Positions 5,139 to 53,483 of a stretch of DNA of 64,000 nt are shown in pieces. The position numbers and the translations under genes were made by a program. Source of the DNA: an uncultured Candidatus Saccharibacteria bacterium (GTDB taxonomy: Bacteria > Patescibacteriota > Minisyncoccia > Phycocordibacterales > UBA9973); contig CAZUZL010000001.1 in assembly GCA_964625065.1 (NCBI GenBank), forward strand, positions 40,132 through 104,131, read 5' to 3'. The notes under the pieces are model-generated. The model was given only the letters and a program-made list of their open reading frames with translations. It was not told the DNA's origin and did no database searches. Numbering within the stretch: the first letter of the stretch is position 1; each line of letters begins with the position of its first letter.

Positions 5139-5744
5139 ATGCAAAAATACACACCCCAAGAATTTAACCTAGGCGAACTAATTGGCATATCAGCTAAGAA
5201 TGTTGAAGAACATTTGAAGCTATACAAAGGCTATGTAACAAACGCCAACAATGTTGTCGAAAAAATAAGTACCCTTTCAGAAGGCATGTTTAAAGACAAA
5301 GAAGACAATGGCTATGTTATAGCCGAACTTTTCCGCCGTTTTGCCTTTGAATACAACGGTATGCGTAACCATGAAGTTTATTTTAGTAGTCTTTCTGGTG
5401 GTCCAAAACCATTAAACCCAGACAGTGCATTAGCTAAACTAATAAACGAAACATGCATGTCGCTAGACATATTGTTAATGGGTTTTAAAAACATGGCTAT
5501 GACACGAGGTGTTGGTTGGGCAGTACTGTGGTACGACAAACGCGACAACCGCCTTCTAGCAAACTGGGTAGACGAACAACACTTAGGCCAACTAAACGGC
5601 TGTACTATGATTCTGGCCCTAGATATGTGGGAACATGCATATGTCTACGACTACCCAACTTCTGCAAAGAAAGATTATATCGAAGCCTTCTTTGCAAACC
5701 TAAACTGGGGCGTAGTAGAAGAAAATTTCAATAACGCACAATAA
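5139..5744 (+). CDS. sodA: Fe/Mn superoxide dismutase family protein
   Basis: DMWEHAYVYDY motif plus conserved His/Asp ligand positions; ATG at 5139 gives ~201 aa; the N-terminal EEHL region is divergent from the canonical HH. Confidence 0.75.
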   Translation: MQKYTPQEFNLGELIGISAKNVEEHLKLYKGYVTNANNVVEKISTLSEGMFKDKEDNGYVIAELFRRFAFEYNGMRNHEVYFSSLSGGPKPLNPDSALAKLINETCMSLDILLMGFKNMAMTRGVGWAVLWYDKRDNRLLANWVDEQHLGQLNGCTMILALDMWEHAYVYDYPTSAKKDYIEAFFANLNWGVVEENFNNAQ

Positions 5745-42808: not shown

Positions 42809-43933
42809 CTAGTTCTCGATTAAACCATTTGGTATCATTTGTTTAACCTTGTTCTTATTAAGAAACCTTTGATAGGAATTGTAATTTAGAAGATTCTCGT
42901 ACTGAAGGTGCCCAATAAGTAAGCTTGGGTGCATACCTAATTCTTGACTCTTTTTATTTATAATTTGGGGTGTTATTTCTATAAACTTAAGGCTTTCTAT
43001 TACACCATCTAATCCCAAACTGCTGACAGCGAATTCATTAGCTTCTTCTTCTTTATCATCCTTAGAGGGACTGTGAATATCGTCTATAAAACATGATCCG
43101 GCTGGTAAAAAATCATGTAGAATTAAATGACCGATTTCATGTAGTAAGGTAAAATAGAAATTATCAATTCTTTCATATCTTAAAGACATAATAATAACAG
43201 GACTGGTAGAATCTAACCAACATGCAGCGCCGTCTACACGAGTCTTTGAAAAGTGTGGCAGGAAAACAATTCTAACTCCAATATTTTTTAGTTCTTCAAC
43301 TATATTTTTAATACCACCTGATTCAGAAGAAAAGTTTTTTATTTTTTTTGAAAAATCTATGAGCTTATTTTTATCGTATACACCTACTTTTTGCCTTTTA
43401 GCAATTTTTTTTGCAAGCAAAACCCAAGACCTTAAATAACTAAAAACGATTTCTCCTTCTGAGGCCCTTAAACGTGCGGACACCAGCGTTTTTAAATCTC
43501 CTTCAGATGAGATACCCAGTAATTCAAATATATCTTTTTTCAAATCCTCAACACCTTTTTTCCTTTTTATGTATTGACGCCTAACTAGATCAGCAATTGG
43601 AAAGAAAGAGTACAAATCAGATCTTTCTTTTATCTCTAAGGGCTTATCTTTTGTTTTTTTATTTAGAATAAAAAGATCGTATTCAACTTGTAAAGAAAGC
43701 CACATGCTTGGGGTTGTTCCTAGCGCAGCAGAAATTATACCTGCTGTTTCTGGAGTAATTCCGCGCTTACCTTTTATTATCTCATTAACAGTTCTTGCTG
43801 GTCTACCTATAATATCCGAAAACTCTGCCTGTGTAAGCTGTCTCTCTGTTATTTCATCAAGTAAAATCTCCCCAGGGTGAAATACTCGGGCAGCCTGATC
43901 TTTATTTTTTTTAAAATTTGTATCTATTTTCAT
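42809..43933 (-). CDS. HigA-type HTH antitoxin fused to ImmA/IrrE-family zinc metallopeptidase domain
   Basis: N-terminal HPGEILLDEI...GKRGITPETA...PSMWLSLQVEYDL is a HigA-family XRE HTH; C-terminal FTLLHEIGHLILHD is the ImmA/IrrE HExxH motif. Confidence 0.7.
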   Translation of the reverse strand: MKIDTNFKKNKDQAARVFHPGEILLDEITERQLTQAEFSDIIGRPARTVNEIIKGKRGITPETAGIISAALGTTPSMWLSLQVEYDLFILNKKTKDKPLEIKERSDLYSFFPIADLVRRQYIKRKKGVEDLKKDIFELLGISSEGDLKTLVSARLRASEGEIVFSYLRSWVLLAKKIAKRQKVGVYDKNKLIDFSKKIKNFSSESGGIKNIVEELKNIGVRIVFLPHFSKTRVDGAACWLDSTSPVIIMSLRYERIDNFYFTLLHEIGHLILHDFLPAGSCFIDDIHSPSKDDKEEEANEFAVSSLGLDGVIESLKFIEITPQIINKKSQELGMHPSLLIGHLQYENLLNYNSYQRFLNKNKVKQMIPNGLIEN

Positions 43934-43942
43934 AATTATGTT

Positions 43943-44239
43943 CTATGAGTAGTGATTAGAAATTTCTTTAATCAATATAATCTTGCAGGTTCCGTCGTTC
44001 TCTAAACTAAAGATTAACCGGTACTGCTGATTTAATCTTATTGAATAATTATCTTCTTTACCTGCAAGCTTCTCGAAATGGTTTCCTTTTATGGCCCTTA
44101 AATCATTTTCATTAGATGCCGACTTAATAATTTGCATTTTTTTAAAAAATGAACTAACAACATAATCAGGATAGTTTTCTTTCCCTATTTCTTCATAATA
44201 TAAGTCGGATAATTCCGAATTTGCGAATTGAAATATCAT
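43943..44239 (-). CDS. higB: HigB/RelE-ParE-family toxin (plasmid maintenance system killer type)
   Basis: NYSIRLNQQYRLIFSLENDGTCKIILIKEISNHY signature; start taken at MIFQF (98 aa) because a TTGACC -17 bp- TATTAT promoter lies inside the longer ORF-track N-terminus. Confidence 0.75.
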   Translation of the reverse strand: MIFQFANSELSDLYYEEIGKENYPDYVVSSFFKKMQIIKSASNENDLRAIKGNHFEKLAGKEDNYSIRLNQQYRLIFSLENDGTCKIILIKEISNHYS

Positions 44240-44626
44240 TGTTTCTTTTAAAATCGACCTTTTATGTATCGAATATGCTGTATGGTTATAATAACAGCTT
44301 GGGTAGCATAGGTCAACTAAAGTTTTACACACATTGTAAATATAGGGTTAACTATTGATTTACAATATATGTTAATTTACTATTGACTCTGATTACCTTG
44401 GCATGCTACATTATAGCAAGAGCTTGCTTTTAAGTAAAATCAATTGAAAATCAAGAAAAGCCACCAATTTCTTAGTAGCTTTTCTGGGCGTTTAAATTAA
44501 ATAAGGGGTACATTCCTAAAATACTCCGTGTCGATTATTTTATATTAGTTAAAATATCAGTAAAGTCTTACATCTATACTGTACCATAACTTACGCCCAA
44601 ATATCAATCTAACTCAAAAAATAAAA

Positions 44627-45198: not shown

Positions 45199-45315
45199 AA
45201 TATTTTGATTGGTTCGCTTCAAAGCTTAGTTTAAGGCTAATCGAATCGCCCTTATCACTTCGTGCCGCAGATGTCCCCGGGACATCTGGGTTGTGTTTTC
45301 TGCTTCAAAACTTAG

Positions 45316-47409: not shown

Positions 47410-47597
47410 CCCGTTAGAGATAGGAAGTGCCACTACATAACATAGAAAACATTTACTATTCTCGATTTTAATTATAATCTATTCGACTAATTACATATCT
47501 AGCACTTCCGTAGATTAATTCAGTATATATACATATTAACATATTACGAGTGCATGAAACATATAAGCAATTAAGCATCTATAATCTCTAACGGGAT
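47407..47597. mobile_element. 191-bp TIR-bounded repeat element (copy B); its terminal CAT is the yraN-like start codon
   Basis: The 27 nt catcccgttagagataggaagtgccac are identical to copy A; inner partner agcacttccgta (47501-47513); tacatattaacata core; right arm atctctaacgggat (47584-47597). Confidence 0.6.
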
Positions 47598-47989
47598 TCA
47601 CTACTTAACTTCAAAATGTTTCATGAATAACACAAATGTCCGTTTCAGTACCAAAATGATCGAATTCCACTAAAGTGTGCCACGTGAAACATCTTTATGG
47701 CTATATCTAACTAATATAATATGTATTCTAATGTGTATTTTATAAATACCCTTATTTTTATAGGTATTTTAGATTTTTGGGGTATAGTATGACATTTTTT
47801 TGACATGTCTGTATACTGTCTTTTATAAACAATATACACAGACTTATCCACACTTATACACAGTTTTCTATATAAAATATAGGTTTTAATGAATATAAAA
47901 GACGATTCTTACAAGAATTGTGTCGCGCAATGTCCTTTGAAGCGCGACCCGTCAAAAAAGTCTTTAATAAAAAGGGCAGAAAAAAGAGA

Positions 47990-48420
47990 GGGGGGCAAAA
48001 GGGGAATCGGTTGCGATTTTATAACAACAGGGAATCGCCACCTACCGTGGCGAGTGCTTTGAACAAAAAGGGGAATCGGCCACGGTTTGCTGGTATTAGA
48101 AATGCGGAATGGGGATCGGCTTCGCCTCTCACCTCGTCAGTCACTCGGTTCGGGCTAGCCACCGCCTCGCACCCACACTGCTGTGTGGGACCCGCTCCGG
48201 CGTCCGATTCAGAATAACAGGGAATCGCCACCTACCGTGGCGGGTGCTTTTAGTAACAATAGGGAATCGGCCACGATTTGCTGACATTTTTCATCACAAG
48301 TTCGAAAAATACCTAGCAATCCCGGCCCGGACTCGGCGACAAGCATTCCTTGTTACACAGGAATCTTGTATACCGCCTCCGTCTTCCGATTCCCCTATTA
48401 CGCATAAAATAAAATCGCCC
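47990..48420. repeat. GC-rich non-coding block of direct repeats derived from the 3' end of tRNA-Gly(GCC)
   Basis: A composite ~70-bp unit occurs twice (48027-48094 and 48217-48288); core gggaatcgg occurs at least 7 times in gene orientation and once inverted (48395-48413); hairpins cgccac-ctacc-gtggcg and cccacac-tgctg-tgtggg. Confidence 0.55.
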
Positions 48421-48450
48421 GAAGGTATACTTCGGGGTCATTTATTTTTG

Positions 48451-48521
48451 TGCGGAATAGGGGAATCGGACCCCTGTCTCATCCTTGGCAAGGACGTGTT
48501 CTACCACTGAACCAATTCCGC
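48451..48521 (-). tRNA. tRNA-Gly (anticodon GCC), no encoded CCA
   Basis: Acceptor GCGGAAU/AUUCCGC, D-loop AGUGGUA, anticodon loop UUGCCAA; the T-loop UCCGAUU carries an unusual C55; a hairpin cccgaag-uauac-cuucggg plus U-run follows the 3' end. Confidence 0.75.
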
Positions 48522-48684: not shown

Positions 48685-48756
48685 GCGCTTGTAGCTCAAT
48701 GGATAGAGTGACCGTCTTCGGAACGGTTGATGTGGGTTCGATTCCTGCCAGGCGCA
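48685..48756 (+). tRNA. tRNA-Arg (anticodon UCG), no encoded CCA
   Basis: Acceptor GCGCUUG/CAGGCGC, anticodon stem ACCGU/ACGGU, loop CUUCGGA, T-loop UUCGAUU; the T-stem has two G-U pairs. Confidence 0.78.
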
Positions 48757-48759
48757 CAA

Positions 48760-48912
48760 GACGATGAAAAGTAGACTGCTCTACTTTTCGAGTACTTGTG
48801 CGAGACGGAGCGATGTTTTGCAAGCATGCAAAACCGCGAGTCGGACCGTCTACAGGTGTCCATCTTATGCCGTGATGGACTTCGAGAAATTTTATGAGTG
48901 ACGACGAATAAA
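48760..48912 (+). other. Three consecutive stem-loops between tRNA-Arg and cca (possible leader or processing structure)
   Basis: aaaagtaga-ctgc-tctactttt; gagacgg...gttttgcaagcatgcaaaac...ccgtctac; gtccatc-ttatgccgt-gatggac; acgaata-aaa-tattcgt. Confidence 0.3.
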
Positions 48913-48943
48913 ATATTCGTGGCCAAAAGACAAAAACATTAGT

Positions 48944-52553: not shown

Positions 52554-53483
52554 TTATTTTGATTTTCCGTGGAATTTCTTATGTATATCACGTAGTTGTG
52601 AATCGGTAACGTGTGTATATATCTGTGTTGTGGCTATATTTGCGTGGCCTAGCATCATCTGCACACTGCGTATGTCTGCACCGTTAGACAACAGATCTGT
52701 AGCAAAACTGTGGCGTATAACGTGTGGGGTAACTTTTTTTGATATGCCCGCCATTATGGCATAGTGTTTAATAATACGTTCTATAGAACGTGAAGTTAGT
52801 CGTGTGTTGTTTTTAGCAAGTGAAATAAACATTGGTTCTGACATGTCTCTTCTGTTTTTTATATATGTCTGCACTGCGTCCTTAGCAGTTTCTGATAGGA
52901 AAACCACGCGAACTTTTTCGCCTTTACCACGGATAGAAAATTCGTCTTTAGACAGATCAAGGTCGCGGTTTAGCGAAGCTATTTCTGAAACACGCAGGCC
53001 AGTAGAAAACAGTAGTTCTAACATAGCTCTGTCGCGAAGTAGTTTTGTTTTATCTATACCTTCGGCAGTAGGTAGGTTTATTTCCGGTGCATGTAGTAGT
53101 CTGTTTAGTTCGTCTACTGTTATCAGGTCTAGGTGGCGTTCTTTAAGTTTAGCCAGTTCTATACGGTCTGGTGGTAGGGAAGTTACACCACGCTTCATTA
53201 AATATTTTAAGAAAACACGTATGGCTATCATGTGGTAGTTTTGTGTGTTTTTTTTCAGGGTTGCCGCCACTTGACCCTTAACTTTCATACCAGACTGGCG
53301 GTTTAGATAAAGGCGGAATTCACGCACAACGTCGTCTGTAATGTCAGTAGGGGTTTTAATGTTCGACACTGCAAAAAAGCGTATTAAGTACCTGTCATAG
53401 TTAGCCACAGTTTTTAAACTTTGGCCTTTTTCGATTTCAACATATTCAAGGAACTGCCTTTTACATGTATTAATGTCATCCAT
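52554..53483 (-). CDS. Tyrosine site-specific recombinase XerC/XerD
   Basis: R...HxxR...Y catalytic residues (GLRVSE, VIRHSFAT, LGHANIATTQIYTHV). Confidence 0.85.
   Translation of the reverse strand: MDDINTCKRQFLEYVEIEKGQSLKTVANYDRYLIRFFAVSNIKTPTDITDDVVREFRLYLNRQSGMKVKGQVAATLKKNTQNYHMIAIRVFLKYLMKRGVTSLPPDRIELAKLKERHLDLITVDELNRLLHAPEINLPTAEGIDKTKLLRDRAMLELLFSTGLRVSEIASLNRDLDLSKDEFSIRGKGEKVRVVFLSETAKDAVQTYIKNRRDMSEPMFISLAKNNTRLTSRSIERIIKHYAIMAGISKKVTPHVIRHSFATDLLSNGADIRSVQMMLGHANIATTQIYTHVTDSQLRDIHKKFHGKSK

Follow-up and report, generated by a model that had tools for sequence, protein, structure and literature searches.

What fills the GC-rich block directly downstream of the tRNA-Gly(GCC) gene in an uncultured member of the Patescibacteria, and how did it come to lie there? 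The block was analysed within a 64,000-nucleotide stretch of assembly GCA_964625065.1 (contig CAZUZL010000001.1, positions 40,132 to 104,131; hereafter the window, with positions counted from its first letter). A first-pass annotation, made from the sequence alone, had taken the repeated copies of the tRNA 3' end in this block for the scar of recurrent site-specific integration and excision, with nothing resembling an island left between the copies, and had named a remnant attachment (att) array or an unrecognised structured RNA as alternatives. The block is an array of elements, some whole and some broken, that belong to one RNA-structured superfamily and lie in the 3' trailers of tRNA and transfer-messenger RNA (tmRNA) genes. 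Each of these units is matched to the tRNA or tmRNA gene upstream of it by a direct copy of the end of that gene (the tail) and by its Watson-Crick complement (the anti-tail), is structured as RNA on the tRNA-sense strand, and comes and goes as a module of core and tail precisely at the gene's 3' end; the units have no accompanying protein gene. The class is widespread in Patescibacteria genomes and metagenomes and appears to be undescribed.

Composition of the block

The block (47990-48403) is a lineage-specific insertion placed between the upstream spacer and tRNA-Gly, and its GC content (54.1%) compares with 28.7% in the upstream spacer, 19.6% in the spacer past the tRNA, and 37.1% in the window as a whole. 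The final 19 nt of tRNA-Gly(GCC), CCGATTCCCCTATTCCGCA, are the tail that is copied throughout the block. The motif GGGAATCG, the reverse complement of the T-loop and 3' T-stem of this tRNA, occurs eight times in the window (0.47 expected; eight reached in 0/100 shuffles), and six of the eight occurrences lie within the block, five in the orientation of the tRNA (+ strand, at 48002, 48030, 48071, 48220, and 48262) and one inverted (48387-48394), the remaining two being inside tRNA-Gly itself and inside tRNA-Pro. An indel-bearing copy (CCGATCCCCATTCCGCA, 48103-48119), the seventh in the orientation of the gene, extends to the discriminator base. A composite repeat of ~70-80 bp is present twice at a spacing of 190-191 nt, with 85% identity between 48018-48069 and 48208-48259 and 89% between 48071-48097 and 48262-48288. 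The GC-richness, the predominantly gene-oriented repeats with one inverted copy, and the duplicated composite unit described in the first-pass annotation were thereby all recovered.

The same annotation had dismissed three open reading frames (ORFs) in the block as artefacts (47918-48217, 48019-48231, and 48109-48510), and none of them has a significant Pfam match (best E-value 0.039, under the curated cutoff), in keeping with a non-coding block. A comparison with the covariance models of Rfam 15 (4227 models, among them group I and II introns, small ribozymes, T-box, tmRNA, HEARO, 6S, and RNase P), which it had proposed as a check, returned only tRNAs from the window at the gathering threshold, and neither a known family nor a sub-threshold tRNA from the block at E ≤ 10. 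ARAGORN and Rfam together recognise just four true tRNAs over the window.

Architecture and folding of the units

On the strand of the tRNA, a complete unit begins with the anti-tail, continues with a conserved three-way-junction core, and ends in the tail. The anti-tail complements, by Watson-Crick pairing, the final ~18-20 nt of the neighbouring tRNA, which comprise T-loop, 3' T-stem, 3' acceptor strand, and discriminator. It is either contiguous or interrupted by a conserved hairpin (P1), and the tail is a direct copy of those final tRNA nucleotides. The core families are A, B, C, the GC-rich D1 and D2, and the D-related F; family A has the pattern cGAAAGacUUUUC ... GAAAAguAcCuG ... GUa. 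The first unit after tRNA-Gly in the window, D1, belongs to this tail-copy superfamily in every respect. Its anti-tail (48386-48403, GCGTAATAGGGGAATCGG) is complementary to the tRNA-Gly tail at 17/18 positions, its tail is CCGATTCCCTATT (48258-48270), and the inverted copy reported by the first-pass annotation is nothing other than this anti-tail. Homologs of D1 occur at L004, L030, L148, and L113 (labels of related loci, see below), and the consensus fold keeps the closing helix between anti-tail and tail together with both core domains, with compensatory pairs at 14/34 (single-sequence fold of D1, z = -5.7).

A full-length D2 unit is present at L005, where the tRNA and a terminator are followed first by the 7-nt acceptor-like strand GTGGAAT and a hairpin, next by GGGGAATCGG, which complements the T-loop and the 3' strand of the T-stem, and then by a ~90-nt GC-rich core and CCGATTCCCCTATTCCGC (a copy of the last 18 nt of the tRNA). 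In its fold (z = -6.7), an acceptor-like helix of 7-8 bp and the hairpin are accompanied by a long core-closing helix. The D2 unit of the window is homologous (nhmmer E = 8e-25) and truncated, with a z of only -1.3 (not significant), and L004 carries a D2 unit truncated at another point.

For family A, eight seed units behind Gly, Pro, and Arg tRNAs gave a consensus fold with compensatory changes at 23/34 pairs. In an alignment of 86 family-A units, 90.8% of cells are paired, a fraction inflated by the fitting of the alignment to the covariance model, compared to 37-51% when the partners are slid by 1-3 columns; double changes occur at 29/34 pairs, and the observed value was reached in 0/500 shuffles. 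Both the slid controls and the seed result, which is independent, speak for a real family-A structure. The frequent G-U pairs at fixed positions (e.g., one pair with G-U in 54 cases vs G-C in 18) indicate that it is the tRNA-sense strand that folds, and that it does so as RNA. The junction nucleotides of the family-A pattern are conserved across very different environments.

The arms are fitted to the individual tRNA. Of 12 acceptor positions that form a G-U pair within the tRNA, 11 have the Watson-Crick partner of the tail in the unit, and G3:U70 of tRNA-Ala is replaced by A3:U70 in the units that follow it, which argues against mimicry for aminoacylation. An extra 5' base (position -1) pairs with the discriminator in 29/41 family-A units, and the anti-tail still complements the upstream tRNA where the unit's own tail is truncated and its acceptor part lost. 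Minimum-free-energy folds of whole precursors pair the tRNA tail with the anti-tail and the 5' acceptor strand of the tRNA with the distal tail copy, so that the tRNA tail, the tail copy, and the anti-tail are predicted to be able to compete. At tRNA-Gly in the window, the terminator-like hairpin is the tip of an 86-nt inverted repeat with 43-nt arms (tRNA tail, hairpin, anti-tail), across which the tail of the tRNA is predicted to pair with the anti-tail.

Six loci with intact units yielded only tRNAs from Rfam at E ≤ 1. Known ribozyme cores (hammerhead CUGANGA/GAAA, hepatitis delta virus-like, hatchet, pistol, and twister-sister) were compared by eye and none fits, which agrees with the lack of an Rfam match. 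The DNA between the tail copies, in which the first-pass annotation had seen nothing resembling an island, is a conserved structured element of ~95-150 nt with RNA-type covariation, including G-U pairs. The annotation's alternative of an unrecognised structured RNA came nearer to what the block holds, namely a fold backed by covariation; no Rfam family covers the block.

Distribution across tRNA and tmRNA genes

The set of related loci comprised 74 loci (labelled Lnnn) plus the window, with 177 tRNAs. A copy of the tRNA's own 3' 16 nt (≤1 mismatch) lies 94-176 nt downstream on the same strand of 22 of these tRNAs, one of the 22 being an assembly-gap artefact, and tail repeats that include flanking identity span 16-23 nt; about 12-17% of the tRNAs in the related loci carry a unit. 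The family-A covariance model, built from the eight seed units, had 31 matches in the related loci and at least 91 further ones in 120 metagenome contigs retrieved by a short core motif; at least ~100 units scored above the cut-offs applied, and many others exist. Among units with judgeable upstream sequence, ~85% have a same-strand tRNA that ends -16 to +43 nt upstream, with 19 isotypes represented, and several units without an upstream tRNA follow tmRNA genes instead, as confirmed by ARAGORN for L155 and L170. The tail is identical at 16/16 positions in approximately half of the units and retains only the T-loop/T-stem part in others.

The tmRNA-linked family-A units at L155 (4175-4290, - strand) and L170 (10050-10172, - strand) lie 34-40 nt downstream of the tmRNA and have arms that fit its 3' end; in tmRNA-linked units the G3:U70 of the tmRNA becomes A:U (for L155 by sequence reading). 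Two other units stand apart from a tRNA. At L153 (1857-1977, + strand) the family-A unit is complete, its tail full and its anti-tail fitting, yet it is solitary: no tRNA was detected on the 2.2-kb contig, 1.86 kb of which lie upstream of the unit. At L110 (1894-2016, + strand) the arms fit tRNA-Arg(TCG), and the unit sits 1.4 kb from that tRNA; the DNA that separates them ends in what we take to be the C-terminus of an IS3-family transposase.

An integrase and cargo, which the first-pass annotation had expected at occupied versions of the site, were not found. No integrase, excisionase, or ORF remnant occurs in or beside the units of the window, and no reverse transcriptase, recombinase, or nuclease gene lies beside units in the window and ~75 metagenome loci. 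When 408 neighbouring ORFs from these ~75 loci were clustered, every family was confined to six loci or fewer. No BLAST match was found among 50,697 phage records, and the 15 motif matches in the viral contigs of IMG/VR were all rejected by the covariance model, a result that doubles as a negative control for the motif scan of the metagenomes. An exact search of viral and metagenome contigs with a 21-mer of the D2 core had no match, this core being too lineage-specific for such a search.

Gain, loss, and exchange of units

A filled/empty pair of loci (L012 vs L016, flanks 88% identical) differs by an element plus a 19-nt duplication of the tail, gained in L012 exactly at the 3' end of tRNA-Gly(GCC). 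Orthologous tRNA-Gly(GCC)/tRNA-Arg(TCG) sites by the gene for the CCA-adding enzyme have D/F, D2, B, or A units, or none, and most are empty. Some units share 88-98% of their core, hypervariable hairpin included, and yet have arms for different isotypes (Arg/Ser, Trp/Tyr, Gly/Ser, and others) that are only 24-63% identical. Insertion-type organisation in relatives, as in the filled/empty pair with its 19-nt duplication, is a part of the earlier scar interpretation that stands; integration and excision by an integrase are unsupported.

The arrays at L004, L005, and the window have a common distal portion and differ in the portion proximal to the tRNA. From the tRNA outward, L005 has a full D2 and a D1 fragment; L004 has a full A, a full D1, a truncated D2, and a D1 fragment; and the window has a full D1, an A fragment, a truncated D2, a D1 fragment, an A fragment, and a terminal fragment. 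At the divergent tRNA-Arg(TCG), the 5' 133 nt of the F unit (48760-48892) are absent from L003 (a 95% relative) and L005, which keep the 3' part only. Overall, these comparisons show a modular population of units that turns over quickly.

Two rearrangements were also observed among the related loci. The same two tandem units follow tRNA-Pro at L014 (4608-4991) and L061 (3886-4270), with the two different terminator hairpins that precede them swapped, which points to recombination at tail or anti-tail repeats. At L004 (an 88% relative; 5172-5232), tRNA-Arg is reversed relative to the CCA-adding-enzyme gene in comparison with the window, the tRNA-Gly/tRNA-Arg locus having been rearranged.

Units and neighbouring features in the window

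In total, the window contains one intact unit at tRNA-Gly, one unit without its 5' arm, four shorter 3' fragments, and one intact unit past tRNA-Arg (Table 1). The pieces of the block other than D1 are fragments of A, D1, and D2 units.

Table 1. Positions and contents of the features at the tRNA-Gly(GCC)/tRNA-Arg(TCG) locus, in window coordinates.
Feature	Position	Strand	Evidence or content
Most distal fragment	47990-48021	-	Tail copy CCGATTCCCC at 48001-48010 and short flank; abuts flank common to L004 and L005
Second family-A 3' fragment	48022-48062	-	P4 hairpin and tail CGATTCCCTG at 48028-48037
D1-type 3' fragment	48066-48102	-	Distal strand of long hairpin and tail CCGATTCCCC at 48070-48079
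Unit D2 without 5' arm	48103-48210	-	No acceptor-like strand and no P1; anti-tail down to GAATCGG; tail CCGATCCCCATTCCGCA at 48103-48119 including discriminator
Family-A 3' fragment	48212-48251	-	Remnant of P3 3' strand, P4 hairpin CGCCACGGTAGGTGGCG, tail CGATTCCCTG at 48218-48227
Unit D1, full length	48258-48403	-	18-nt contiguous anti-tail, two-domain GC-rich core, tail copy
Bidirectional terminator-like hairpin	48415-48441	both	Terminator scan; stem 48418-48436; between tRNA-Gly and first unit
tRNA-Gly(GCC), intact	48450-48521	-	ARAGORN; Rfam tRNA, 68.3 bits
tRNA-Arg(TCG), divergent neighbour of tRNA-Gly	48685-48757	+	ARAGORN, Rfam
F-type unit directly 3' of tRNA-Arg(TCG)	48757-48924	+	Fold z = -4.9

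The tRNA-proximal family-A fragment shares 97% identity with the 3' end of L004:4919-5055, an intact unit of this family, and it has a partial covariance-model match (model positions 40-109) and a solitary match to the hidden Markov model of the 3' half. The second family-A fragment (85% identity to the repeat at 48208-48259, 94% to L004:4925-4959) has a weak partial covariance-model match. The D1-type fragment matches the 3' end of D1 through the direct repeats at 83-89%, and the same fragment is found at the equivalent place in L004 and L005.

The F unit consists of a P1 hairpin that is closed by pairing with the 3' end of the tRNA and its trailer, GAGACGGAG-hairpin-CGAGTCGG, a further hairpin, and the conserved 3' part GAGTGACGACGAATAAAATATTCGTGGCC. 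Apart from the motif GAGACGGAG-hairpin-CGAGTCGG it is unrelated in sequence to the tRNA-Gly block, and it has anti-tail and tail in reduced form only; relatives follow tRNA-Arg, tRNA-Gly, and tRNA-Lys in L187, L006, L013, L167, and L103.

The genes near the block encode a UPF0102 protein and the CCA-adding enzyme, and the closest relatives of the latter (95%, 88%, and 77% amino acid identity) are in metagenome-assembled genomes (MAGs) of Patescibacteria (Candidate Phyla Radiation; Paceibacteria/Nomurabacteria-like). In Logan short-read assemblies of the same population (SRR13208906/889), L001 and L002 start at window position 48479 and L197 ends near 48052. As these contigs break inside tRNA-Gly and inside the repeats, the array is an assembly breakpoint, and 48052-48479 is missing there. 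Exact-protein searches for further alleles of the source population likewise gave only short Logan contigs with ends inside the repeats.

Several features farther from the units were recorded. A tyrosine recombinase of the XerC/XerD type (309 aa; Phage_integrase and SAM-like N-terminal domains) is encoded at 52554-53483 (- strand), ~4 kb from the block, with no evidence for a link to the units. A HigB-like toxin gene (43943-44332) adjoins a gene for a protein with a helix-turn-helix (HTH) and an M78 (ImmA/IrrE-like) peptidase domain (42809-43933; both genes on the - strand); the pair is toxin-antitoxin-like or regulatory and lies just past the tRNA-Pro/tRNA-Gly(TCC) pair. The 116-nt spacer from tRNA-Pro(TGG) to tRNA-Gly(TCC) (45199-45314, - strand) has a direct repeat (taagttttgaagc / taagctttgaagc), a perfect hairpin (cagatgtcccggggacatctg), and a T-arm-like GGGCGATTCGATT, and may be a decayed unit, the equivalent Pro-Gly(TCC) spacer of L023 having a D2-type unit. 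Within the AT-rich spacer at 47440-47989, a perfect DnaA box (TTATCCACA, 47844-47852) adjoins a near-perfect one (TTATACACA, to 47862). The motif that contains them (36-46 nt, 47815-47862) recurs at 85-93% identity in at least ten related loci, always near tRNA-Gly, and could be an origin or a DnaA-regulated site. The block itself was rejected as a feature of the replication origin oriC: the window shows no enrichment of DnaA-box-like sites (16 vs 21 expected), and units occur at many other loci.

Discussion

The reading that we prefer, with a probability of roughly 0.5, is that the units are selfish, non-autonomous mini-elements that are co-transcribed with tRNA genes and home to tRNA 3' ends by base pairing. 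Read-through from the tRNA would co-transcribe the unit, and the anti-tail would supply target recognition by pairing with the 3' end of a tRNA gene. Insertion at the tail, whether Campbell-like or target-duplicating, would leave the tRNA intact and duplicate the tail, and recombination among tails, anti-tails, and conserved core segments would then shuffle, truncate, and delete units. The candidate movers would be a trans-acting recombinase or reverse transcriptase. In a stronger and more doubtful form, the units might constitute a hitherto unrecognised, protein-less, RNA-structured class of homing element that is programmed by base pairing, with a constant three-way-junction scaffold, a rewritable ~20-nt anti-tail as guide, and a matching tail, able to settle behind any tRNA-like 3' end; movement would be by an RNA intermediate or an unlinked host or trans enzyme, and the junction might even be catalytic, as a new small ribozyme.

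Several points weigh against the preferred reading. No mobilising enzyme was identified beside the units, no excised or circular form was seen, and we know of no mechanism by which the anti-tail, with up to three separated tRNA-specific segments, would be rewritten on a move to a new tRNA. The compensatory evolution of orthologous units (e.g., L026 vs L029) and the strict co-orientation with the tRNA also fit an RNA that benefits the host. Presence and absence can arise from deletion between tail repeats and homologous recombination between strains, with no transposition, and the near-identical cores at different tRNAs could stem from gene conversion rather than movement. A 5'-truncation signature like that of long interspersed nuclear elements (LINEs), suggested by the arrays at the window, L004, L005, L119, and L189, was dropped as a generalisation after a census of half-profiles: family A has seven solitary 5' halves (away from contig ends) vs six solitary 3' halves, a distribution without 5'-truncation bias that leaves a LINE-like signature of target-primed reverse transcription unsupported.

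The main rival is that the units are dispensable 3'-trailer RNAs of tRNA and tmRNA genes, co-transcribed in the tRNA precursor, that function for the host. The helix of anti-tail and tail could mimic an acceptor/T-stem minihelix, or the anti-tail could pair transiently with the tRNA 3' end, and might in this way direct or regulate quality control, CCA addition, or the processing of 3' or 5' ends. Another possibility would be release of the unit as a stable ~120-nt regulatory RNA, cf. the sponges derived from the 3' external transcribed spacer (3'ETS) in E. coli. The strict position on the same strand directly after the gene speaks for such a function, as do the RNA-type structure with junction nucleotides conserved across environments, the compensatory changes among orthologous units, and the association with all RNAs whose 3' end is tRNA-like, tmRNA included. 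So do the acceptor-like helix of D2 at L005, the pairing of position -1 with the discriminator, the anti-tails that stay complementary to the tRNA after loss of the acceptor part of the tail, and the predicted competition of tRNA tail and tail copy for the anti-tail. A host function is nevertheless rather unlikely given the patchy occurrence of the units, with most orthologous tRNA-Gly(GCC) sites empty and a minority of tRNAs occupied in the related loci, and given the several unrelated core families found at one site in close relatives. The arrays also hold broken copies that do not fold, such as D2 in the window, a terminator hairpin often stands between tRNA and unit, and the replacement of the alanine identity pair G3:U70 by A:U argues against mimics for aminoacylation.

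A classical att array, in which elements with tyrosine integrases (prophages, islands, or satellites) left partial tRNA copies and the DNA between them is degraded element, e.g., attP arms, would account for direct repeats from T-loop to 3' end that flank an insert and leave the tRNA intact, for the 19-nt duplication in the filled/empty pair, and for the choice of tRNA and tmRNA genes, which are classical targets. For tycheposons, the literature documents stacked integrations and scattered partial tRNAs (bioRxiv 10.1101/2020.12.28.424599), and the Xer-like recombinase gene lies at no great distance. We nonetheless consider this origin improbable. Neither the window nor the ~75 metagenome loci have an integrase, excisionase, or ORF remnant in or beside the units, viral contigs and phage genomes gave no match, compensatory and G-U pairs of RNA type are unexpected in attP arms that bind protein, and the units bear an inverted Watson-Crick copy of the tail; moreover, one ~100-nt core is joined to the tails of 19 isotypes plus tmRNA, whereas integrases are site-specific. 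Decayed tandem duplicates of the tRNA, with a GC-richness that is simply tRNA-derived, would explain a GC content like that of tRNAs and the presence of both 3'-end fragments and 5' acceptor-strand-like fragments (GCGGAAT-like, 48103-48109, + strand, as inverted tail). Such pseudogenes are very hard to credit, since no cloverleaf or tRNA covariance-model signal occurs anywhere in the block, core and P1 are conserved across units at different tRNAs and do not derive from the D and anticodon arms of each tRNA, and at 11/12 wobble positions the 5' acceptor-like strand agrees with the tail complement and not with the 5' strand of the tRNA itself, which rules them out.

Full-text literature searches, finite as the coverage of literature and databases is, found no description of such elements. 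The nearest paper deals with group I introns that sit in anticodon loops of tRNAs in Patescibacteria (PMC13011429); duplications, tRNA-like elements, and features of the T-loop or T-arm go unmentioned in it, and the word "downstream" appears only where methods are described.

If the description given here is correct, the ultra-small genomes of Patescibacteria carry diverse and abundant elements of ~100-150 nt behind perhaps 1/6 of the tRNA genes in these lineages. Mobile units would represent natural, sequence-programmable targeting with no linked protein and would bear on RNA-guided insertion systems; units that serve as host RNAs would point to an unknown step in the maturation or control of tRNA and tmRNA, in a phylum that already stands out for its atypical RNA biology. 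In practical terms, the units explain assembly breaks at tRNA loci and, in MAGs of Patescibacteria, give rise to false ORF predictions and "partial tRNA" signals, and the family covariance model is ready for use in annotation.

Comparison with known systems

The att repeats of tyrosine-integrase elements (islands, prophages, and tycheposons) resemble the units in that repeats from T-loop to 3' end bracket an insert, the tRNA remains intact, and events stack. The units differ in the lack of integrase and cargo, in the RNA-structured core of ~100-150 nt, in the inverted copy of the tail, and in the association of one core family with many isotypes. Integron attC sites and cassette arrays likewise consist of units that fold as single strands, are arrayed at a fixed primary site, and have a short end core that pairs with an inverted copy inside. 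However, the units have no integron integrase and no R''/R' GTTRRRY cores, form a three-way junction rather than a single bulged hairpin, have G-U pairs that indicate RNA rather than single-stranded DNA, and use a tRNA gene as primary site.

Miniature inverted-repeat transposable elements (MITEs) and other non-autonomous elements are similarly small, non-coding, multi-copy, and polymorphic in presence, and the 18-nt inverted repeat of D1-type units and the duplicated target flank are further similarities. The terminal repeats of the units differ with each tRNA, the arms diverging where the cores are nearly identical, and therefore cannot be the binding site of a transposase, unlike those of MITEs; the units are also always co-oriented at one exact position and show selection on RNA-type structure. 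The filled site shows a 19-nt duplication and presence/absence polymorphism, which can be likened to a MITE insertion only tentatively: the duplicated stretch belongs to the folded unit as well, and its length is unusual for a target-site duplication.

Among tRNA-like and tRNA-precursor RNAs (the tRNA-like domain of tmRNA, YrlA, viral tRNA-like structures, mascRNA, and the E. coli 3'ETS sponges), the shared features are a coaxial helix like that of the acceptor and T-stem, which ends at the discriminator, and a position in the tRNA 3' trailer. The units depart from these RNAs in that the T-loop is base-paired, D and anticodon arms are missing, G3:U70 is lost, and the arms are fitted individually to the neighbouring tRNA.

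With RNA-guided elements (the exon-binding and intron-binding sites, EBS-IBS, of group II introns; the bridge RNA of IS110/IS1111; and the omega-RNA of TnpB/IscB, with its flank-derived guide), the units have in common a structured RNA that matches the DNA of the insertion site, and they combine, as those systems do, a constant scaffold with exchangeable specificity segments that base-pair with that site. They differ in having no adjacent reverse transcriptase, recombinase, or nuclease gene and no Rfam match, in being far smaller than a group II intron, and in holding the guide and a copy of its target within one unit, where the two pair with each other.

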